Program-made: the position numbers and the translations under genes | Part shown: positions 1,947 to 63,214 of the stretch, piece after piece | Numbering within the stretch: position 1 is the first letter of the stretch | Layout: the number at the start of each line of letters is the position of its first letter | Notes under the pieces: model-generated | What the model was told of the DNA's origin: nothing | Databases searched by the model: none | Seen by the model: only the letters and a program-made list of their open reading frames with translations | NCBI GenBank assembly: GCA_030646915.1 | Contig: JAUSKT010000012.1 | Coordinates: 4,663-68,662 of the forward strand | Direction: 5' to 3' | From: a bacterium | GTDB lineage: Bacteria > Patescibacteriota > Minisyncoccia > UBA6257 > 02-FULL-45-10c | DNA length: 64,000 bases

Positions 1947-2051
1947 CCCGTTTAGAAAATTAAAGCTAGCGTCTTTCGACTATAAAACTTCCGATAATAC
2001 TTGGGAGAATTTTTTCTATTAGTAAACATATTGGTTAATTTTCTAACGGGA
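1946..2051 (-). mobile_element. TIR element, long subfamily A (106 nt), on the polX start codon
   Basis: Ends are TCCCGTTAGA and TCTAACGGGA. A 4-bp direct repeat TGGA (gene sense) sits at 1942-1945 and 2052-2055. An internal 34-codon frame runs from ATG 2054-2056 to the TAA at 1952-1954. Confidence 0.85.
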
Positions 2052-3293: not shown

Positions 3294-5826
3294 GGCGGCT
3301 ATTAAATATTAATTCATTCCCGGAAAACTCAACTAAAATATTACTGCCCCGTTCAATTTCATTTTTTAAAATTTTCTCCGCGAGCACACTCCGAATTTTA
3401 TCAGAAATCACGCCCCTAAGAGGCCTTGCCCCGAATACAGGATCATATCCCCATTCAGCGATTTTTTTAACCGCTACGTCAGAAAACTGCATATCCATCC
3501 CCTGACTTTCTTTTAAATCGCCGGATAAATCCGCCAAAAGAATTTTTGCTACTGCAACCGTATCTTCAGGAGATAAACTTTTAAATACAATAATGCCCGA
3601 AAAACGGTTAATTAATTCCGGCCGGAAATAATCTGATAATTTCTTTTTTAGATTTTCGCTGACTTCAGACATTTCTTTTCCGGCTTCCAGCTCTTCTTTA
3701 ATAAAATTAGAATTCGCATTACTAGTAGCAATAATAATAGTATTTTGAAAATCAACCAGTTTGCCAAAATTATCAGTCAGCCTACCGTCATCAAATACCT
3801 GCAGAAAAATATTTAAAATGTCCGGATGAGCTTTTTCAAATTCGTCCAGTAATACCAAGCTATATGGTTTTTGAATTACAGCTTCCGTTAAACTGCCAGC
3901 CATTGTACCATCTGGTGAACCAATGAACCTAAAAAGGCTTTGCTTGTCTTGATATTCAGACATATCAAAACGAATCATTGAATCTTTAGAACCAAATTGG
4001 ATATTGGCTAAAATCTTGGAAAGTTCGGTTTTCCCCACGCCGGTCGGGCCGACAAAAAGAAAACTGGCAATTGGTCCTCCCTTCCTAGAAAGACCGCTCC
4101 GATATTCTCTAAGCGCTCGAGAAACTGCCCTAACAGCTTCCCCTTGATCTACTAAGCGCTGATGAATCAATTCTTCAAGATTTAATAATTTTTTAGCTTC
4201 CGCGTCTTTTGCCTGCCGAAGCGGGATACTAACCCGTCGCTGAGCAATATCTATGACATCGTCAATATTTAAAACTTTATCGCCCTTATCCTTGGCGTCA
4301 GATAAGGCTTCTTTTAAAAGTTCTTCCGCGCTTGAAGGCAATAATTTATCCCGAAAATATTTCGAAGCTAAAATTACTGCTTGCTTGATTGAACCAAAAG
4401 TAATCGTAATGCCAAATTGTTTTTCTAAAATTATGCTGTCATAAACCAAAAGCCGCGTGGCGTCTTGAATAGAAATTTCTTTAACCGGAATAACTTCAAA
4501 AACTTTTGAAAAATCAACTTGTGGTTCAATAGATTGTTTATATTCTTTGGCATAAGTGGCGCCGACTACAGAAAAAGCGCTGGAGGCAAATGCCGGCAGG
4601 AAAATATCAGCGGCATTTATTCCCAGCCTTCCGGAAGTTTTCATTAAATTATGGATGTCAGGTATAAATAAAATAATATTTCCCGCCTGGACAATTTCTT
4701 CAATAATTTTAGTGATCCGAGACTGCAATTCCCCGGATTCACTAGCGCCAGCCATTAAACTTCCTACCCGCAAAAGCACTAATCTTTTATCAAAAAGTTC
4801 CGGCGGCACATCGTCTTCGGTAATTTGATGAGCTAGGTGGCTTATTAAAGTTTCCTTTCCCGAACCTGGGTCGCCAACCAATAATACATTTGGCCGTGTC
4901 GGCCGGGATAAAACATCGGTCATCCGATCATATTCGTCTTCGTGGCCGACTAAAAAGCCAATTTGTTCCAGCCTTGCATAATCAGTAAGATCCTCGCTAA
5001 ATTGGTCAAGAATTGGCGTTGGGCGGGCACTCCAAGCGCGATTCATAGTACGATGCCTAATTTTATACGGCCTATAAACAAAACCACCAAGATTAACTGG
5101 TAAAGTTTTTAACCAGCCGAAGTAATCTTTATATCGGCTGAAAATCAAAGCGTTTTGAAGATCGCCGGAGTCAATATTAAAAAACTGCAAAACCTTTAAA
5201 ACTCCGCTGCTATCGCAATGGCTTAATGCCGCAAAAACGTCTTTCGGCTCAATAAACCGATTATCTGCCAAAATTGCCTGGCCTAAAGAAATCTTCAGGA
5301 TTTTTTCAATTTCCATCAATAAGTTTTTTGCCTGTTCTTTCGGATCGCCTAAATATTTTTCATCTCCTATGCTGGTTTTCAGCAATTCATCAACTTTGTT
5401 ATAAACCTCCTCCGGCTTGAGATCCATTCTTACTAATCCGACTTTAATATCCTTTCTATCAACCAGCCTTCTCATTAAAAAAAGATAAAAATTTCCCTTG
5501 GCAACCAGCGCTCGTTCAAATGCATATTCCAAAATTGCAAAAGTGCTGGGTGTAATATATTTCGCCAAATTAGAATTTTCTTTCAGTCCATCTCTCAACA
5601 ACGAACGGTCTGCCTGGCCGAAATGCTTTAACCTGTCCAATAGAATCAACAAAAGTAGGACTCCAGTCCAAAAAAGCCATTTAATATCCGATAATAAAAA
5701 AACTAGGCAGGCAGCGGCTAAAATTCCATAAGTGGCGTAAAAAACCGTCCTTAAAAAAAGCCGGCCGGCATGGGTCATTTGAAAACGCGGATCAGAAAAA
5801 TATAAATTTGAAATCGGCTGGCTCAT
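3283..5826 (-). CDS. ClpB/ClpC-like double AAA+ ATPase with N-terminal transmembrane segment
   Basis: 847 aa with two Walker A motifs (GDPGSGKET, GPTGVGKTE), a Clp D2-small C-terminus (GARPLRGVI) and two N-terminal hydrophobic helices. Confidence 0.85.
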   Translation of the reverse strand: MSQPISNLYFSDPRFQMTHAGRLFLRTVFYATYGILAAACLVFLLSDIKWLFWTGVLLLLILLDRLKHFGQADRSLLRDGLKENSNLAKYITPSTFAILEYAFERALVAKGNFYLFLMRRLVDRKDIKVGLVRMDLKPEEVYNKVDELLKTSIGDEKYLGDPKEQAKNLLMEIEKILKISLGQAILADNRFIEPKDVFAALSHCDSSGVLKVLQFFNIDSGDLQNALIFSRYKDYFGWLKTLPVNLGGFVYRPYKIRHRTMNRAWSARPTPILDQFSEDLTDYARLEQIGFLVGHEDEYDRMTDVLSRPTRPNVLLVGDPGSGKETLISHLAHQITEDDVPPELFDKRLVLLRVGSLMAGASESGELQSRITKIIEEIVQAGNIILFIPDIHNLMKTSGRLGINAADIFLPAFASSAFSVVGATYAKEYKQSIEPQVDFSKVFEVIPVKEISIQDATRLLVYDSIILEKQFGITITFGSIKQAVILASKYFRDKLLPSSAEELLKEALSDAKDKGDKVLNIDDVIDIAQRRVSIPLRQAKDAEAKKLLNLEELIHQRLVDQGEAVRAVSRALREYRSGLSRKGGPIASFLFVGPTGVGKTELSKILANIQFGSKDSMIRFDMSEYQDKQSLFRFIGSPDGTMAGSLTEAVIQKPYSLVLLDEFEKAHPDILNIFLQVFDDGRLTDNFGKLVDFQNTIIIATSNANSNFIKEELEAGKEMSEVSENLKKKLSDYFRPELINRFSGIIVFKSLSPEDTVAVAKILLADLSGDLKESQGMDMQFSDVAVKKIAEWGYDPVFGARPLRGVISDKIRSVLAEKILKNEIERGSNILVEFSGNELIFNSRHDN

Positions 5827-15333: not shown

Positions 15334-15362
15334 ATTTTACACTATAAATTGCTATTTGTCAA
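15334..15362 (-). promoter_or_regulatory. Sigma70-type promoter for 14750-15289
   Basis: On the minus strand: TTGACA (15357-15362), 17-nt spacer, TAAAAT (15334-15339). Confidence 0.55.
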
Positions 15363-15368
15363 TACTTG

Positions 15369-15418
15369 TCCCGTTAGAGGCAGAGGCGCGCTGCGTGTCC
15401 TCGTGGCCTCTAACGGGA
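15369..15418. mobile_element. TIR element, short GC-rich form (50 nt), intergenic between divergent promoters
   Basis: tcccgttagaggcagaggcgcgctgcgtgtcctcgtggcctctaacggga, flanked by TTG on both sides. The right-hand TTG is part of the rpsT -35 hexamer. Confidence 0.8.
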
Positions 15419-15447
15419 TTGACACCAACCTATAAAAGTAATAAAAT
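15419..15447 (+). promoter_or_regulatory. Sigma70-type promoter for rpsT (near-leaderless)
   Basis: TTGACA (15419-15424), 17-nt spacer, TAAAAT (15442-15447). The ATG lies at 15458. Confidence 0.55.
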
Positions 15448-15457
15448 AATAAATACT

Positions 15458-15715
15458 ATGATTACTAAATCTGCAAAAAAGGCTTACCGCCAGAACCTCC
15501 GAAGAAACGCGAGAAACCTTCAAGTAAAAAGCGCGCTTCAAAAGGTTTTAAAAAATTACAAAAAATTAGTCTTGGATAAAAAATTTGACGCCGCCAAGGG
15601 AGAACTTTCAAAAGTTTACCAGGCACTTGATAAAACCGCTAAAGCGGGAGTAATCAAAAAAAATAAAGCGTCTCGCTTAAAATCTCGATTAACTGCCCTA
15701 GTCAATAAAAAATAA
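15458..15715 (+). CDS. rpsT: 30S ribosomal protein S20
   Basis: MITKSAKKAYRQNLRRNARNLQVKS... is a typical S20. The track ORF start at 15356 reads through the repeat element and was rejected. Confidence 0.9.
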   Translation: MITKSAKKAYRQNLRRNARNLQVKSALQKVLKNYKKLVLDKKFDAAKGELSKVYQALDKTAKAGVIKKNKASRLKSRLTALVNKK

Positions 15716-17343: not shown

Positions 17344-18327
17344 TTATAGCTTCTGGCACTTTGGGCAAAAATGCGCAGAACGCCCACCCAACTTTACCCG
17401 AACGATAGCCGTTTTGCATCTTCGGCAAGGCTCATCCTCGCGCTGATAAACTAGACGATAATCCGCATATCCCCCCTCTTTTCCCGAAGTATCCCGATAA
17501 TCGCTATAAGAAGTGCCGCGCAATTTCAAGGCCTTTTCCAAAACTTTTCGTATTGCCTTATACAAACTTCCTAATTCCTGATTCCCCAACTTATTCGCCG
17601 GCTTGAATGGATGGATTTTCGCAGCCCATAAAATATCGTCAGAATAAATATTTCCGATTCCCGCAATAACTTCCGGATCCATTAAAACTTGCTTGATTTT
17701 GCGACGCTCGGACTTTATTAATTTTACAAACTCCGCGAATTTGAAACTTGGGTCTAATGGTTCCGGCCCCAAATTTTTTATCTCCGGCAAATTTTCAATC
17801 TGTTCTTTGGTGCCTAAAAGGGCTTTGGCAAATTTACGAAGATCAGAAAGCGCCAACATTGCACCATCATCCACCCCGTTAGAAGCCGCCCTCGCTTTTA
17901 GCGAGTGGCTACGGCCACCTTGGGGCGACCTGCTTCTAACGGGGTCAAGATAAAAAATTAAATGAATATATTGATTATAAGGATCCTCAACTACTTCTTT
18001 CGGCTCAAGCGGAATAGTTTTTTTGCCCACGACTTTCCACTTGCCAATTAGCAGATGCCCGGTCATTTTCAAATGAATCAGCAATAAAAAATCACCGCTT
18101 AAATAAATTAAAATATTTTTTGCCCGGCGGACTACTTTTAAAATTTTCTTTCCTTTAATTACTTTTTCAAAAATCGCCACGTGCTTATGGGCTATTTTAT
18201 TTTTCTGCTGGTCAAGCGGGTCTTTGAGCATTTTCGGCCAATCAAACCAAACGCCGACTATTCGTCGGCCAACTACTTTCTTATTCAGATCATTAACTAT
18301 GGTTTGTACTTCTGGAAGCTCTGGCAT
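17344..18327 (-). CDS. mutM: Formamidopyrimidine-DNA glycosylase (Fpg/MutM) with an in-frame repeat insertion
   Basis: N-terminal MPELPEVQT, H2TH region and C-terminal Zn finger CRRCKTAI...CPKCQ. A 23-codon GC-rich insert lies at 17875-17943. Confidence 0.9.
   Translation of the reverse strand: MPELPEVQTIVNDLNKKVVGRRIVGVWFDWPKMLKDPLDQQKNKIAHKHVAIFEKVIKGKKILKVVRRAKNILIYLSGDFLLLIHLKMTGHLLIGKWKVVGKKTIPLEPKEVVEDPYNQYIHLIFYLDPVRSRSPQGGRSHSLKARAASNGVDDGAMLALSDLRKFAKALLGTKEQIENLPEIKNLGPEPLDPSFKFAEFVKLIKSERRKIKQVLMDPEVIAGIGNIYSDDILWAAKIHPFKPANKLGNQELGSLYKAIRKVLEKALKLRGTSYSDYRDTSGKEGGYADYRLVYQREDEPCRRCKTAIVRVKLGGRSAHFCPKCQKL
17874..17944 (-). mobile_element. TIR element, short GC-rich form (71 nt), in frame inside mutM
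   Basis: ccccgttagaagc...gcttctaacgggg, translated as PVRSRSPQGGRSHSLKARAASNG. Flanks are TTGA/TGGA (gene sense). Confidence 0.75.
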
Positions 18328-21938: not shown

Positions 21939-22043
21939 CCCGTTTAGAAAATTAAAATAAGTGTCTTGCCGACTAAATACTTCCGATAGTGCTCTATAAA
22001 ATTTTTATTGCGATTAAACATGGTTATTAATTTTCTAACGGGA
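21938..22043 (-). mobile_element. TIR element, long subfamily A (106 nt), on the 5'-3' exonuclease start codon
   Basis: TIRs are intact and the TGAA duplication is at 21934-21937 and 22044-22047 (gene sense). A 34-codon internal frame starts at ATG 22046-22048, which overlaps the tsaE stop TGA. Confidence 0.85.
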
Positions 22044-24189: not shown

Positions 24190-24297
24190 CCCGTTTAGAA
24201 AAATAAATAATAATATCTTGTAACTAAAAAGCTTCCTATAATGCAATTATAATATTTTGACTTATTTATTGATACGGCTGTTATTTTTCTAACGGGA
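24189..24297 (-). mobile_element. TIR element, long subfamily B (109 nt), on the ruvB start codon
   Basis: Ends tcccgttagaaaaataa...ttatttttctaaacggga, with the TGGA duplication at 24185-24188 and 24298-24301 (gene sense). A 35-codon internal frame ends at a TAA 5 nt before the ruvB ATG. Confidence 0.85.
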
Positions 24298-36777: not shown

Positions 36778-36882
36778 CCCGTTTAGAAAATTAAAATAAA
36801 CGTCTTGTCGACTGAAGACTTCCGATACTGCTCTATAAAATTATTGCTATGTATAAACATATTTATTAATTTTCTAACGGGA
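36777..36882 (-). mobile_element. TIR element, long subfamily A (106 nt), on the start codon of 35710-36777
   Basis: TIRs are intact. Flanks are TGCA/TGAA (3 of 4 match). The internal frame encodes MHPVRKLINMFIHSNNFIEQYRKSSVDKTFILIF. Confidence 0.85.
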
Positions 36883-40864: not shown

Positions 40865-40968
40865 CCCGTTAGAAAATTAAATTAAACATCTTGCCGACTA
40901 AAGACTTCCGATATTGCTCTATAAAATTTTGGTTTAGTTTAAACATATTTATTAATTTTCTAACGGGA
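40864..40968 (-). mobile_element. TIR element, long subfamily A (105 nt), on the virB4 start codon; supplies the stop codon of the upstream gene
   Basis: TIRs are intact and no flanking duplication is seen. The TAG of ORF 40960-41631 (40960-40962) lies inside the element terminus cccgTTAGaaaa. Confidence 0.85.
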
Positions 40969-42161: not shown

Positions 42162-42268
42162 CCCGTTAGAAAAATAAATTATAACGCCTTACGACTAACA
42201 GGTTTTCTATAATGCAATTATAAAATTTTGAATTATCTTTACACATGATTGTTATTTTTCTAACGGGA
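42161..42268 (-). mobile_element. TIR element, long subfamily B (108 nt), on the start codon of 41646-42161
   Basis: TGAA duplication on both sides. The internal frame encodes MNPVRKITIMCKDNSKFYNCIIENLLVVRRYNLFF and ends at a TAA 4 nt before the ATG. Confidence 0.85.
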
Positions 42269-42272
42269 TTCA

Positions 42273-42301
42273 TCCCTTCGTTAGTATTGTCTCTAACGGG
42301 A
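42273..42301 (-). mobile_element. 29-nt stub of a TIR element in tandem with the previous copy
   Basis: Gene sense reads tcccgttagagacaatactaacgaaggga between two further ATGAAT repeats. It is 9 codons long and in frame with the downstream element frame. Confidence 0.6.
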
Positions 42302-42305
42302 TTCA

Positions 42306-43220
42306 TTATTTATTTTTTAAATCAATAATGTTATCGCCTGATTTTTCGAATTTCCGCAAATCAATCCTGTTTTGATCCGCGGGATTTTTTGGCGTTCCAA
42401 TATTAGTAATTGGGGTTCTTGGGCCGCTGTAGTGAACTACTCTAGCAGCCGGATTATTTTCGGGTGTTTCCAGTCTTACTGATACTGCCTTAGAAGCAGA
42501 TTTTTTTTCTTCAGAAGCCGGCCGCGAATAGTTTTGAATTTTAATAGAAAGATCCGGCCTAGCATTAAAAGTTGGCTTAGGGGAAGAAACTTCTGTTTCT
42601 TGATGTAAGATAAATGGAGAAGATGGCGCTTCCAAAGATTGGAGATCAATTTTAGCTTCCTCTTTTTTAGGAGCAAGAGATGGCTCTAAAAAATCTTTAA
42701 ATGATTTTTGTACGCTAGCTTGTCCTAGTGATGAGGCTGGTCCCGTTAGAGACTCCGCCCGCGCTTGCGCGCCCGAAGGGCCTATGGGGCGGGCTGTCTC
42801 TAACGGGATGGCTGCTGATTGTGTCGCTGGTTCAGTTGCAGGTTTTTGCGCGGCAGAAGCTGATCCTGGCTTGCCAAAATAAATTAATTTTACATCCACG
42901 CCAACATCCCGCCTTAATTCATTTTCAATTGGTTTTAAAATTTTATTTTCAATATCTTCGGCGATGGATTTTGCGGTTGTAAAACTAACCATAAGTTCGT
43001 GACTTAGGGCATTTATAAACTCCGTAGGTTCAATATCTTGGGTTACAAGCCTAAATATTAGCTTCGGTATAATTATTCCCCGTTCATTCTTTATTCCCAG
43101 TCTTTGGTTTATTTCAGTAACTAGATAAGTAGTTTGTAGGGAAGAAAGCCGCTCTTTAACGTTTGGGGGCAATGACTCAAATGCAGCCCCCAAATTTTTA
43201 AATTCTTTAGTGTCGTCCAT
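42306..43220 (-). CDS. Hypothetical protein with Ala/Ser/Pro-rich linker (T4SS-like cluster), carrying an in-frame repeat insertion
   Basis: 304-aa ORF. A 22-codon GC-rich insert lies at 42742-42807. Confidence 0.5.
   Translation of the reverse strand: MDDTKEFKNLGAAFESLPPNVKERLSSLQTTYLVTEINQRLGIKNERGIIIPKLIFRLVTQDIEPTEFINALSHELMVSFTTAKSIAEDIENKILKPIENELRRDVGVDVKLIYFGKPGSASAAQKPATEPATQSAAIPLETARPIGPSGAQARAESLTGPASSLGQASVQKSFKDFLEPSLAPKKEEAKIDLQSLEAPSSPFILHQETEVSSPKPTFNARPDLSIKIQNYSRPASEEKKSASKAVSVRLETPENNPAARVVHYSGPRTPITNIGTPKNPADQNRIDLRKFEKSGDNIIDLKNK
42741..42808 (-). mobile_element. TIR element, short GC-rich form (68 nt), in frame inside 42306-43220
   Basis: tcccgttagagac...gtctctaacggga with a TGG duplication. 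It is read in a different frame from the other intragenic copies (IPLETARPIGPSGAQARAESLTG). Confidence 0.75.
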
Positions 43221-47489: not shown

Positions 47490-47695
47490 AAATGGAGGGC
47501 GTTCGCTATCTTATCTGCCTACCGGCACCGGCGTCGCTCTGCTCCTGCGGCAGAGCGCGCCTACCCCTCGGCGCTAAAACCGAGCACATAAAATTTATGT
47601 GCTCGGACCAAGCTTTTAGCGCCTCCGTAGTTGTCGCACGGCAGATAAATAGCTCACTTAGGCAGGTGTTGGCGAGAGAGTTGGTTGAGCGGAAT
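47490..47695. other. GC-rich highly structured intergenic segment (possible ncRNA or leader)
   Basis: Outer stem gctatcttatctgcc/ggcagataaatagc. Inner hairpins are cgctctgc/gcagagcg and ggcgctaaaa-ccgagcac...gtgctcgg-ttttagcgcc. Its 3' block gttggcgagagagttggttgagcg recurs (reverse complement) at 51812-51835. Confidence 0.5.
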
Positions 47696-47700
47696 TGTAG

Positions 47701-48543
47701 TTATCGGAAAATATTAGCCAGAGACTTTATTTGTTCCAGTGATAAATTTTGCGGACGATCTAGGGGGTTGATATTCAGAAATTGCAGGCTTTTTTTAATA
47801 TCTTCTTCTTTGGTTTTAAGACCAGTCCTAAGGTTATTAAAGATTGTTTTTCTCGGTTGTTTAAAAAGAATGTGGATTAATTTGTAGTAATTTTGCTGTA
47901 GTTGTCTGTGGTTATTTGTAGTTGTTTGTGGTTTTGTCGTTAGTTTAATTACTGCAGAATCTACTTCCGGCGGCGGATTAAAATCCGCCGGTTTTAAGCT
48001 AAAAAGTATTTTAGGTTCTGCCCAGAATTGGACAGCAGCTGCCAGCAGATTCATCCCGTTAGAGGCAGAGGCGCGCTGCGGGCCCTCGCGGCCTCTAACG
48101 GGATTCATTCTCCGGGGTTGGGAAACAATTCTTTCCGCAACTTCTTTTTGAATCATTAAAACAGAAATATTAGGCTTATTATTTAATTCACTTAAAACCC
48201 TTAGCAGTTTACCGGTAATATAGTAGGGAATGTTTCCTACAAGTTTAAAACTTGAAGAATCAAGTTTAAAGCAAATTTTTGACAATTCTTTTAGGGCATC
48301 TCCGTGGATAACTTCTATTTTTTCTTCATGTTTAATAAGTTTTACCGCAAGATCTCGGTCTTTTTCAATTGCAATTAATTTGCAGCCAACCTTTTTACAT
48401 TCTTCTAAAAGCGGAAAAGTCAGCGCTCCATCGCCTGGACCAATTTCAATAATTGTTTCTCCGGATTTTAAATCTAAATCAGCAATTATTTTTTTAATTG
48501 CAGATTTATTTGTAAGAAAATGCTGGCCTAATTGTTTATTCAT
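47701..48543 (-). CDS. rsmA: 16S rRNA (adenine1518/1519-N6)-dimethyltransferase RsmA/KsgA with an in-frame repeat insertion
   Basis: 280 aa with LGQHFL, the SAM motif EIGPGDGALT and NIPYYIT. An 18-codon insertion lies at 48049-48102. Confidence 0.9.
   Translation of the reverse strand: MNKQLGQHFLTNKSAIKKIIADLDLKSGETIIEIGPGDGALTFPLLEECKKVGCKLIAIEKDRDLAVKLIKHEEKIEVIHGDALKELSKICFKLDSSSFKLVGNIPYYITGKLLRVLSELNNKPNISVLMIQKEVAERIVSQPRRMNPVRGREGPQRASASNGMNLLAAAVQFWAEPKILFSLKPADFNPPPEVDSAVIKLTTKPQTTTNNHRQLQQNYYKLIHILFKQPRKTIFNNLRTGLKTKEEDIKKSLQFLNINPLDRPQNLSLEQIKSLANIFR
48054..48103 (-). mobile_element. TIR element, short GC-rich form (50 nt), in frame inside rsmA
   Basis: Flanked by the direct repeat ATGAAT (gene sense; 48049-48054 and 48103-48108). 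Translated as PVRGREGPQRASASNG. Confidence 0.85.
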
Positions 48544-48665
48544 CCCGTTAGAGACAGGTCATCTTTAGATGACCGTAACTCGGCCGCCTAAACGACTCCT
48601 GACGATTAATTATTGATTCTGATTTTATATATATATTAAACATAGTTTAGTTGTCTCTAACGGGA
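48543..48665 (-). mobile_element. TIR element, long subfamily C (123 nt), on the rsmA start codon
   Basis: Ends tcccgttagagac...gtctctaacggga with TGAA duplications. The internal frame has an early TAA at codon 8, then an in-frame ATG leading to the terminal TAA. Confidence 0.85.
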
Positions 48666-55758: not shown

Positions 55759-55881
55759 TCCCGTTAGAGACAACCAAACTATGTTTTATATATATCCAAA
55801 ATTTGAATCAATAATTAATAATCAGAAGTCAGTTAGGTGGCCGAGTTACGGTCATCTAAAGATGACCTGTCTCTAACGGGA
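55759..55881 (+). mobile_element. TIR element, long subfamily C (123 nt), on the comM start codon
   Basis: TGAA duplications at 55755-55758 and 55882-55885. The upstream ATG (55754-55756) overlaps the dksA-like stop TAA. The internal frame is 40 codons (MNPVRDNQTMFYIYPKFESIINNQKSVRWPSYGHLKMTCL). Confidence 0.88.
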
Positions 55882-58544: not shown

Positions 58545-58649
58545 CCCGTTTAGAAAATTAAATTAAACGTCTTGCCGACTGAAGACTTCCGATAATGCTC
58601 TTTAAGACAATTTAGTACTATAATCATATTTGTTAATTTTCTAACGGGA
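58544..58649 (-). mobile_element. TIR element, long subfamily A (106 nt), on the start codon of 57468-58544
   Basis: TGGA duplications on both sides (ATGGAT/ATGGAT). The internal frame encodes MDPVRKLTNMIIVLNCLKEHYRKSSVGKTFNLIF. Confidence 0.88.
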
Positions 58650-62263: not shown

Positions 62264-63214
62264 ATGGCAGCCATTGAAAAATCCTTAAAAGACTACTTAG
62301 ATTATCTGGAAATTGAAAAAAACCGTTCGCCGAAGACGCGAGAAAATTATGAACGATATTTAAAAGCCTTTATTGATTTTTCTAGAATTAAAAAACCGGA
62401 AGATATTACAATGGAGACGGTGAAAGAATTCCGGATATGGTTAGCGCGCAGTCCCGTTAGAGGCCGCGAGGGCTCGAAGCGCGCCTCTGCCTCTAACGGG
62501 ATAAAAAAAGTTACCCAGACTTATTACGCCATTGCCATCCGGAATTTTTTAAAATACTTGATTAAAAACGATTTTGAAGTTTTGTCTCCGGATAAAATTG
62601 AATTGCCGAAAATTCCCCGCCGGCAGATAGATATTATTGAATACGCGGATTTGGAAAGGTTTTTAAGCGCGCCGGCGCAAAATACTTTGCGCGGACTTAG
62701 AGACAGAGCTATCCTGGAAATGTTTTTTTCCACCGGACTCCGGATTTCCGAACTTTGCAATTTAGATAGGTATATTAATTTGGATAGAGGAGAAATCACG
62801 GTAAGAGGCAAGGGCGAAAAATTGCGGGTGGTTTTTCTTTCAGATCGGGCAAGAGCGGCTATAAAAAATTATCTGGATAAAAGAAGTGATACCACAGAAC
62901 ATTTATTTATCAGCCTTTCCAAGCAAACTTCTCCATTGAAAGAGCCGAAAGTTATTGGAAAAATCACTTCGCGAGCAGTCCAGCGGTTGGTAGAATTTTA
63001 CCGGCGGAAAGCTGGCATCGCCAAAAAAATAACTCCGCATCAGATCCGCCATCAGTTCGCGACTGATTTATTAATAAATGGCGCAGACCTCCGCTCGGTG
63101 CAGGAGCTTCTTGGCCATAGCAATATTTCCACCACTCAAATTTATACCCACATTACTAATAAAGAACTTCGGGAAATTCATAAATCTTTCCACGCAGCCA
63201 GGCGGAGAAAATAA
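62264..63214 (+). CDS. XerC/XerD-type tyrosine recombinase with an in-frame repeat insertion
   Basis: 316 aa with an N-terminal SAM-like domain (LEIEKNRSPKTRENYERYL) and catalytic R...HQIRH...LLGH...Y residues. A 16-codon insert lies at 62453-62500. Confidence 0.88.
   Translation: MAAIEKSLKDYLDYLEIEKNRSPKTRENYERYLKAFIDFSRIKKPEDITMETVKEFRIWLARSPVRGREGSKRASASNGIKKVTQTYYAIAIRNFLKYLIKNDFEVLSPDKIELPKIPRRQIDIIEYADLERFLSAPAQNTLRGLRDRAILEMFFSTGLRISELCNLDRYINLDRGEITVRGKGEKLRVVFLSDRARAAIKNYLDKRSDTTEHLFISLSKQTSPLKEPKVIGKITSRAVQRLVEFYRRKAGIAKKITPHQIRHQFATDLLINGADLRSVQELLGHSNISTTQIYTHITNKELREIHKSFHAARRRK
62452..62501 (+). mobile_element. TIR element, short GC-rich form (50 nt), in frame inside the Xer recombinase gene
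   Basis: 46 of 48 core positions are identical to the rsmA copy, in the same orientation and frame (PVRGREGSKRASASNG). No flanking duplication is recognisable. Confidence 0.8.

Follow-up and report, generated by a model that had tools for sequence, protein, structure and literature searches.

A palindromic, probably mobile element lies in frame within the fpg gene of a Patescibacteria bacterium

Introduction

Rickettsia palindromic elements (RPEs) are short palindromes found in frame within unrelated housekeeping genes of a reduced genome, where they are read through in a manner compatible with the fold of the host protein (PMC10969869). Yeast and other fungal mitochondrial GC clusters are GC-rich mobile palindromes of an AT-rich genome, whose terminal repeats of 2-3 nt are taken as target duplications, which are polymorphic in frame within var1 and whose variation is concentrated in loops (PMC8811140). 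By analogy, these are the closest known kinds to the element described here. It lies in the fpg (mutM) gene of a Patescibacteria bacterium, on a stretch of 64,000 nucleotides of contig JAUSKT010000012.1 (GenBank assembly GCA_030646915.1, positions 4,663 to 68,662), called the window throughout. The insert has perfect terminal inverted repeats and a 69-nt core that is most likely translated, and it shares its termini with further copies in the window and in other genomes.

The resemblance to RPEs lies in the in-frame copies, found here in Fpg, RsmA, XerD and a 304-aa open reading frame (ORF) and elsewhere in RsmH, UvrC, HolA, GatB and SecA, with probable read-through. RPEs differ in being about 100-150 bp long and confined to Rickettsia, whereas the intragenic forms here measure 48-75 nt and the family combines a terminal motif of 9-11 nt across phyla with a T-NN-A target, reuse of hot spots and sister subfamilies on start codons. 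The RPE families, RPE-1 to RPE-10, belong to the genus Rickettsia; the hosts here are Patescibacteria and other phyla, and the elements are not filed with RPEs. Mitochondrial GC clusters share the GC-rich palindromic hairpins, the in-frame insertion and the variation in loops, but they are organellar, target AG or TAG, and are bypassed in Magnusiomyces, whereas a multiple-of-three rule here favours translation.

[quoted passage not shown] The present elements have terminal inverted repeats and a target duplication, are present or absent at the fpg, ruvB and 5'-3' exonuclease sites, and are too small to encode a transposase. Most bacterial MITEs are intergenic, whereas here the termini double as codons (PVR/SNG) or as stops (TAG/TAA), and no parent insertion sequence with these termini was found in the window or in loci L001-L128. 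No description of the family was found in the literature searched, whose coverage excluded most subscription journals; CCCGTTAGA, the terminal motif, appeared there only in unrelated primer or construct contexts, and the same literature held nothing on MITEs of the Candidate Phyla Radiation or on start-codon MITEs. The fpg copy alone is of modest novelty; a cross-phylum family that reuses hot spots and includes a start-codon subfamily is more noteworthy.

The Insert in fpg

A sequence-only reading of the window had described a 69-nt variant of a repeated inverted-repeat element at 17874-17944, in frame in mutM between YLD and VDDGAMLAL, with a hairpin of its own in the interior and TTGA/TGGA flanks. 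The coordinates and frame 0 are confirmed, as are the flanks on the coding strand (cTTGAc / gTGGAt); the CTCGC/GCGAG hairpin of the interior is real, and a second one, GTGGC/GCCAC, adjoins it (Table 1). The 13-nt arms ccccgttagaagc and gcttctaacgggg are perfectly complementary across a 45-nt spacer. The core, CCCGTTAGA...TCTAACGGG, occupies 17875-17943 (69 nt) and translates in frame 0 as PVRSRSPQGGRSHSLKARAASNG, flanked by ...IFYLD and VDDGAMLAL. Up to two mismatches being allowed, the 13-mer arm occurs 8 times in the window against 1.24 expected. Folded as RNA, the 75 nt reach -50.7 kcal/mol (z = -7.9), with a 14-bp closing stem and two inner hairpins. A known structured RNA family was rejected because scans with the 4227 covariance models of Rfam were empty at the gathering threshold for the elements and the whole window, and at E <= 1 over 17840-17980. 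The insert is most likely read through as a 25-residue loop rich in Arg, Ser, Gly and Pro and predicted to be disordered.

The 120 best Fpg orthologues, which are Patescibacteria-like and 60-83% identical, bear on whether the segment is an insertion or a loop proper to the lineage. It is absent from 114 of them, which read ...FYL-DNGK... uninterrupted. The six carriers, all with the segment at the identical codon, are the window protein (P0001), P0002, P0003, P0034, P0036 and P0062; they come from six independent assemblies of different projects and are scattered over a neighbour-joining gene tree. The closest relatives of the window protein are empty (83-81% identical after removal of the insert), and carrier P0002 is 92% identical to the empty P0027. 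All carriers keep the inverted repeat, with a single arm mismatch (CCCATTAGA) in two, where a lineage-specific loop devoid of such repeats in other species would have told against the earlier description. On these alignments, the segment is an insertion and not a conserved lineage loop.

The DNA of all six carriers and three empty sites was compared. Empty sites read TTT TAT TTA GAT AAY and filled sites TAT YTN GAC [CCCGTTAGAAGC...GCTTCTAACGGG] GTG GAY, a gain of exactly 75 nt. Among five lineages the insert DNA is 92-97% identical, and the sixth carrier (L006) is about 80% identical, with a compensated hairpin swap, while third codon positions flanking the insert are 36-56% identical. In the codon alignment, identity is 0.89 within the insert vs 0.68-0.71 over the adjacent 20 codons (60 nt), and it is no higher next to the insert than in the distant flanks of fpg. 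Since flank identity is not raised, the conserved unit is the element itself rather than a transferred piece of gene, and spread by gene conversion was rejected on the same ground.

Mapping onto structure, which had been suggested earlier, places the insert at the turn of a beta-hairpin. In an AlphaFold2 model built with 70 orthologues (mean pLDDT 86, pTM 0.82), the sole stretch with pLDDT below 50 is the insert, residues 132-151, between strands 121-127 (YIHLIFY) and 157-162 (MLALSD). Foldseek matches the model to MutM/Fpg-DNA complexes with target-normalised TM scores of 0.88-0.90, and the residues invariant over the 70 aligned orthologues are all retained, including the N-terminal PELPEV and the four zinc-finger cysteines. 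The model thus predicts a disordered insert in an otherwise intact Fpg fold. By alignment, the insert site corresponds to what we take to be the ADGQ turn of Lactococcus Fpg, 7-8 residues before the intercalating Arg/Phe of the (V/L)RKFG loop; by analogy with known Fpg structures, the equivalent turn would face away from the DNA.

Copies in Other Genes

For the motif CCCGTTAGA, the window has 25 occurrences where 0.31 would be expected, and 100 shuffles gave at most 2. The window holds 15 paired elements and one 27-nt remnant with common termini, 27-121 nt in size, whereas a syntenic relative (L007) has none in 20.9 kb against these 16 copies in 64 kb. The interior type of the fpg copy recurs in RsmH (L012), RsmA and XerD of other genomes, in keeping with its description as a variant of a repeated element. 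MutM, Xer and RsmA had been grouped as three DNA-transaction enzymes with one insert each. Each does carry one, but RsmA is an rRNA methyltransferase and a fourth intragenic copy lies in the 304-aa protein; the hosts in other genomes (RsmH, UvrC, HolA, GatB, SecA, a pseudouridine synthase and a glycosyltransferase) take away any special link to DNA transactions.

An intragenic context, defined by 80 or more open codons on each side along one strand, applies to 37 elements. Their length is a multiple of three in 33, as opposed to 45 of 112 elements in other contexts (Fisher p = 1e-7). At the remaining four, two genes meet and the upstream one ends at a TAG within the terminal repeat; none of the 37 splits a gene with a length that is not a multiple of three. 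Most copies are read as PVR...SNG and some as PLE...LTG, whereas the third frame, which holds the TAG, is never used. Neither splicing nor ribosomal bypass would impose rules of length and open frame, which argues for translation.

Ten fpg-type copies from four kinds of site were aligned for covariation. Pairing reaches 97% in the closing stem, with four compensated pairs, and 98.6% in a sense-strand hairpin (columns 16-22 against 27-33 of the alignment), which has two compensated pairs and an invariant G.U; controls with slid partners fall to 32-53%. The hairpins of the fpg-type copies are maintained.

Target Site and Hot Spots

A scan of GTDB species genomes for CCCGTTAGA-N28-58-TCTAACGGG gave at least 120 loci. 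By our own calculation about 270 chance matches are expected across 596 Gb, so single matches need care. The matches listed include many Patescibacteria classes, Omnitrophota, Planctomycetota (Pirellulales, Phycisphaerae), Cloacimonadota, Bacteroidales, Desulfobacteria and Syntrophaceae; among them several genomes are matched twice, and one flank rule holds throughout. The matches are not random.

The flank rule was drawn from 163 elements. Outside the arms, the left base is Y and the right base R in 98%, and the two form a complementary pair in 153; the next flank pair is complementary in 122. T stands at -5 in 74% and A at +5 in 77%, and 87 elements show a direct repeat of the central flank dinucleotide, where roughly 6% would be expected with the 16 dinucleotides taken as equally likely, a figure estimated rather than computed. 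The filled and empty pairs of fpg, ruvB and the 5'-3' exonuclease each gain the core plus 6 nt. The best reading of these flanks is that ends of the form (A)Y...R(T) enter a palindromic T-NN-A (in fuller form RTNNAY) with duplication of 2-4 bp, which would bring the fpg site from TT GG AT to TT GG [AC...GT] GG AT with zero extra mutations. A plain duplication of 6 bp was rejected: the element-proximal flank bases are 98% Y/R and the distal copies only about 65%, and in 6 of 9 start-codon cases the upstream duplicate ends in T where the gene does not.

Some sites have been used repeatedly. In RsmA the hot spot lies before MNLLAAA (DNA ATGAAT), and about 110 of 120 orthologues are empty there. 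The 48-nt type occupies it in some five lineages and the fpg-type interior in two (PVRSRSPQDDRSHSPKARTASNG), while one lineage each has a longer derivative giving a 25-residue insert, a reverse-orientation fpg-type and another type. DNA of two RsmA copies confirms the fpg-type interior; the one in L249, between ATGAAT and ATGAAT, is about 88% identical to the fpg copy (a count from the two printed sequences), with paired stem changes from GGTGGC/GCCAC to GATGAC/GTCAC. The XerD loop after WLAR, empty in most orthologues, holds the 48-nt type, the fpg type, two others, a tandem double insert and a remnant. Four or five different subfamilies at the same loop in different lineages mean that the RsmA and XerD sites have been reused, and such repeated, independent hits at permissive sites make repeated insertion a reasonable reading of the patchy distribution in fpg.

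Composite forms were also observed. In one XerD orthologue (P0283, residues 86-133) two inserts of different subfamilies, PVRGRSSQDDRSHSPSARTASNG then PVRNRARAQARSEGPSGRAISNG, stand in tandem in a single loop. Minimal units that consist of the hairpin only (CCCGTTAGAGAACGAAGTTCTCTAACGGG) and nested or tandem composites occur in L015 (for instance at 3903-3969), L017, L031 and L021, and point to insertion of elements into one another or to a shuffling of their interiors. In IMG/VR, ten contigs classified as viral (L251-L260) match the short-form pattern; they could be vectors between phyla or misclassified cellular contigs.

Long Forms on Start Codons

Each of the ten AT-rich elements of 103-121 nt in the window adjoins a real gene's start codon, and all ten have the same orientation with respect to the gene (Table 1). 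N-terminal Pfam matches of these genes begin at or near the protein start, within residues 1-5 for PolX, the 5'-3' exonuclease, PrgI and RsmA. Just upstream, an ATG-N-A is duplicated in nine of the ten, and in eight of those nine the variable base co-varies; the element-free L007 has plain ATGGAG and ATGAAA starts at its ruvB and exonuclease sites. Long elements occupy ten starts and no other intergenic ATGRA site; 14 ATGRA sites at gene starts and 23 at other intergenic places of the window are unoccupied (hypergeometric p = 4e-4).

The frame that opens at the upstream ATG runs through the element in nine of ten cases and stops at the TAA of the 3' terminal repeat, which leaves 4-5 nt to the native ATG. 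From the upstream ATG to the TAA there are 96, 99 or 114 nt, always a multiple of three. An extra A in TCTAAACGGG was rejected as frame compensation, as the TAA lies upstream of it; the A shifts only the spacing from stop to start, from 4 to 5 nt. Six copies of the 104-nt type, 69-94% identical, have zero indels among them. Their frame 0 contains the terminal stop only; each of the remaining five frames is interrupted by 1-6 stops. No codon position is favoured among the substitutions, and the codon differences comprise 166 non-synonymous and 12 synonymous ones. The even spread led to the rejection of a functional micro-peptide, openness and length being all that is kept. Selection thus holds the frame open and the length fixed, not the peptide. 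A frame and a length that are kept with a free peptide match the requirement of stop-restart translational coupling, and the terminal repeats of the long form fold so that the two ATGs come together.

The mycobacterial interspersed repetitive units (MIRUs), reportedly described by Supply and colleagues in 1997, are said to be intergenic repeats with a small ORF; its stop and start overlap those of the flanking genes or lie directly beside them, allowing translational coupling. The coupling logic would be the same for the long forms here. MIRUs differ in being direct tandem units that lack terminal inverted repeats and lie between the genes of operons rather than on a duplicated start codon.

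In other genomes, the start is duplicated in 19 of 25 start-abutting copies; 8-9 of the 25 end either at the terminal-repeat TAA or with an ATGA overlap, 3 read through in frame and 13 stop early. A metagenome scan of long forms found 32 of 104 evaluable copies next to a start, mostly AT-ended copies at ATGAAT, while long copies with AC...GT ends lie at sites of GTTTAC, GTAAAC or GTTGAC type. The start-codon habit is real but subfamily-specific, and it is weaker outside the window. Promoter cargo was rejected as an explanation, no sigma-70-like site being found in or around 21939-22042, the one 104-nt element scanned.

Two long copies have unusual settings. The start codon of the PrgI-family gene has apparently been hit twice, by the 106-nt element and by the remnant. 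The element at 40865-40967 adjoins the start of one gene and gives a stop codon to another: the terminal-repeat TAG (40960-40967) closes the 223-aa ORF (...GGEESR*) that lies upstream of the TraG/VirB4-like gene.

Other Features of the Window

The remaining genes of the window are ordinary housekeeping genes, including dnaA-dnaN and rnpA-yidC. The adjacency of dnaN, dnaA, rnpA, yidC and the jag-like gene (30806-35555) indicates that the window probably spans the replication origin, near 33.5-33.9 kb. The noncoding 48-nt copy lies upstream of rpsT; it is not in coding sequence because orthologues place the S20 start downstream, at MITKSA. Directly after this copy stands ATTGACA, with TAAAAT some 17 nt later (15356-15460), and the -35 box of the S20 promoter may coincide with this copy or have been rebuilt by it. 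The left flank ACTTGT is common to several elements of other genomes.

Three further repeats of the window stand apart from the family. A perfect 32-nt palindrome at 1046-1077 (GTCTCCCTACGGGAGA joined to TCTCCCGTAGGGAGAC) lies inside the PolX ORF, where it is read as SPYGRSPVGRQ, and may be an in-frame hairpin insert of another family. Just downstream of rsmA, a GC-rich island in AT-rich surroundings (47514-47589) lacks both CCCGTTAGA termini and a called ORF and could be a further type of hairpin repeat. Between convergent genes, at 28199-28238, AAAACAACACGCCCCGGCA and TGCCGGGGCGTGTTGTTTT form a perfect 19-bp inverted repeat that looks like an ordinary bidirectional terminator.

Table 1. Elements of the family in the window and parts of the fpg locus (an empty strand cell marks features listed with no strand)
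Feature	Position	Strand	Basis or remark
Host gene fpg/mutM, 327 aa, intact	17344..18327	-	Pfam Fapy_DNA_glyco, H2TH, zf-FPG_IleRS; many solved Fpg structures match
fpg-type element	17874..17944	-	13-bp terminal inverted repeats + 45-nt GC-rich interior; in-frame reading PVRSRSPQGGRSHSLKARAASNG
Left arm ccccgttagaagc	17874..17886		inverted-repeat match
Right arm gcttctaacgggg	17932..17944		inverted-repeat match
Two interior hairpins	17891..17918		CTCGC-loop-GCGAG 17891-17905; GTGGC-loop-GCCAC 17905-17918; alternative sense-strand hairpin backed by covariation
Flank TCCA (coding TGGA), one copy of imperfect 4-bp duplication	17870..17873		empty orthologous sites are TTAGAT
Flank TCAA (coding TTGA), other duplication copy	17945..17948		one synonymous Leu-codon change from TGGA of four other lineages
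48-nt member in frame in RsmA (PVRGREGPQRASASNG)	48055..48102	-	ATGAAT flank each side
48-nt member in frame in XerD-like recombinase (PVRGREGSKRASASNG)	62453..62500	+	termini, frame, Pfam
66-nt member in 304-aa protein of unknown family (IPLETARPIGPSGAQARAESLTG)	42742..42807	-	second open frame, IPLE...SLTG
48-nt member upstream of rpsT (S20), noncoding	15370..15417	+	true S20 start downstream at MITKSA
104-nt AT-rich long form at ATG of PolX	1947..2050	-	start-codon map, Pfam
104-nt long form at ATG of 5'-3' exonuclease	21939..22042	-	L007 orthologous site empty
107-nt long form at ATG of RuvB	24190..24296	-	L007 orthologous site empty
104-nt long form at ATG of R3H-domain (Jag-like) gene	35026..35129	+	start-codon map, Pfam
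104-nt long form at ATG of 355-aa ORF	36778..36881	-	start-codon map
103-nt long form between two genes; TraG/VirB4-like ORF starts at element end	40865..40967	-	upstream ORF stops at inverted-repeat TAG
106-nt long form at ATG of PrgI-family gene	42162..42267	-	start-codon map, Pfam
27-nt degenerate remnant, in tandem with 106-nt copy	42274..42300	-	each ATGAAT-flanked
121-nt long form at ATG of RsmA	48544..48664	-	start-codon map
121-nt long form at ATG of ComM/Mg-chelatase-like gene	55760..55880	+	start-codon map, Pfam
104-nt long form at ATG of 358-aa ORF	58545..58648	-	start-codon map

Discussion

The fpg segment is, in our judgement, quite probably a non-autonomous palindromic mobile element, similar to MITEs and to RPEs, that persists as a tolerated selfish passenger and is translated as a loop. 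Elements with termini (A)Y-CCCGTTAGA...TCTAACGGG-R(T) would enter at T-NN-A (RTNNAY) and duplicate 2-4 bp; in fpg, entry at the Leu-Asp codon pair TTRGAT would add the 75 nt as 69 nt of core and 6 nt more. The gene stays open since the core is a multiple of three, the termini read as Pro-Val-Arg and Ser-Asn-Gly and the interior is free of stops. The disordered loop would then come to lie at the turn of the beta-hairpin ahead of the DNA-intercalating RKF loop, where the insert is presumably neutral, with a very stable mRNA hairpin (-50 kcal/mol) as a possible side effect.

How might such an element move? A trans-acting enzyme would make a staggered exchange of 2 bp (or 4 bp), and could be a DDE enzyme of the IS30 kind, with a 2-bp stagger, or one resembling a serine recombinase. 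Were the element circularised, its junction, TCTAACGGGRT-NN-AYCCCGTTAGA, would be a perfect palindrome. Palindromic junctions are the architecture of small serine-recombinase sites and of IS30 inverted-repeat junctions, and such a junction would explain why targets resemble the element ends. Among the 64 window ORFs of at least 70 aa, Pfam found no transposase, the only recombinase being the XerD-like gene, and no long element bounded by family termini occurs in the window or in loci L001-L128. A Y1/RAYT transposase was considered as the mobiliser and rejected: in L250 (2780-3760), a 233-aa Y1_Tnp (RAYT-like) gene stands beside rsmA with the palindrome TTGTGAGGTCCGACCTCACAA on both sides, which differs from the family. 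That locus looks like a REPtron-like unit unrelated to the CCCGTTAGA family.

Other classes of hairpin repeat fit less well. Repetitive extragenic palindromes (REPs) are described as extragenic with a 5' GTAG/CGTC tag (PMC3733652). The elements here resemble REPs, with their composite forms (BIMEs) and associated RAYT transposases, in being GC-rich hairpin repeats that are dispersed in many copies; the assignment was rejected because many copies are intragenic and the flanks are RTNNAY rather than GTAG/CGTC. An integron attC site was likewise rejected. The core sites of attC run in the order 5'-RYYYAAC ... GTTRRRY-3', whereas the GTTAGA and TCTAAC hexamers here are in the opposite order, 5'-GTTAGA...TCTAAC-3'.

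Several points weigh against the reading of the fpg segment as a mobile passenger. The duplication of the window copy is imperfect (TTGA vs TGGA); translation is argued from the rules of frame and length, which is indirect support; and with neither an autonomous partner nor a transposase identified, the case for mobility is drawn from distribution. The six carriers share subfamily, orientation and the GTG right junction, which could reflect one old insertion under selection, and the strong conservation of the insert, with changes limited to loops, G.U and compensated pairs, could reflect a function of the hairpin. Template-switch correction or repair in palindromes, moreover, can mimic compensatory change. 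Since the fpg-type copies also occur in both orientations relative to host genes, the covariation is not taken as proof of an RNA function.

A single ancient insertion, since domesticated, would account for some of these points: hairpin, as RNA or DNA, or loop would serve fpg, for example through mRNA stability or translation rate, and would have been kept by selection here and precisely lost elsewhere. The near saturation of synonymous sites adjoining an insert that is 92-97% identical speaks for it, as do substitutions that preserve pairing or fall in loops, including an invariant G.U workable only on the sense strand. We nevertheless consider domestication unlikely: the Fpg tree makes the carriers polyphyletic and only one member of a 92%-identical pair has the insert, the same interior lies in opposite orientation in other genes, so that a sense-strand RNA role is not general, the RsmA and XerD sites were hit repeatedly by different subfamilies, and the loop is predicted to be disordered. 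Still less credit is due to the idea that the segment goes untranslated, either removed as an intervening sequence or bypassed, in the manner of T4 gene 60 or mitochondrial "byp" elements, between matching Asp codons (GAC...GAT). A very stable hairpin and matching codons around the insert, in RsmA (AAT/AAT) as in fpg, would suit such a mechanism, and bypass in translation is documented for GC clusters of yeast mitochondria (PMC8811140). It would, however, require neither a multiple of three nor an open frame, whereas the length is divisible by three in 33 of 37 copies, all of them open; CCC GTT AGA, with no stop, follows the putative take-off codon, and Rfam gave no ribozyme or intron match. 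A programmed bypass element was rejected on these grounds. Translation of the insert would yield junction peptides such as IFYLDPVR or AASNGVDDGAMLALSDLR, and bypass or splicing IFYLDDGAM. That the segment is an ordinary lineage-specific loop built by local indels around a chance inverted repeat, or an assembly artefact, is hardly credible. Surface loops of Fpg do vary in length, and Patescibacteria enzymes have other extensions in the same region, but a perfect 13-bp inverted repeat common to 15 other loci of the window, the independent assemblies of the carriers and the 114 orthologues without the segment all speak against it.

Beyond the fpg passenger, a broader and decidedly more speculative proposal, which we hold to be possible rather than probable, would unite the CCCGTTAGA-ended elements in a single cross-phylum family whose termini evolved to be invisible to translation, with a start-codon subfamily acting as spacer ORF and a 2-bp-crossover recombinase working on the circular junction. 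Two frames would read PVR...SNG or PLE...LTG and the third would supply a stop. On entry at ATG-NA the terminal AT would regenerate the start codon, which would let the subfamily live exactly on start codons, where ribosomes would pass from a translated spacer ORF of unconstrained sequence to the native ATG, 4-5 nt further downstream. With a 2-bp-crossover recombinase at work on the circular junction, the repeated hits on the same hexamers of conserved genes across lineages would be explained.

Should these readings hold, Patescibacteria, with very small genomes where each gene presumably counts, would carry abundant protein-invading elements, as would several co-occurring phyla. The elements would account for puzzling inserts of 16-25 residues in Fpg, RsmA, XerD, SecA, GatB and UvrC, and such inserts could mislead alignment, phylogeny and structure prediction in these lineages. 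The recurrent use of one hexamer across lineages would imply a site-selective insertion enzyme, for now a candidate only. Reused sites would amount to a natural insertion scan of the loops that tolerate disordered inserts, and the start-codon forms would be a natural case of a mobile element that persists through stop-restart translational coupling.

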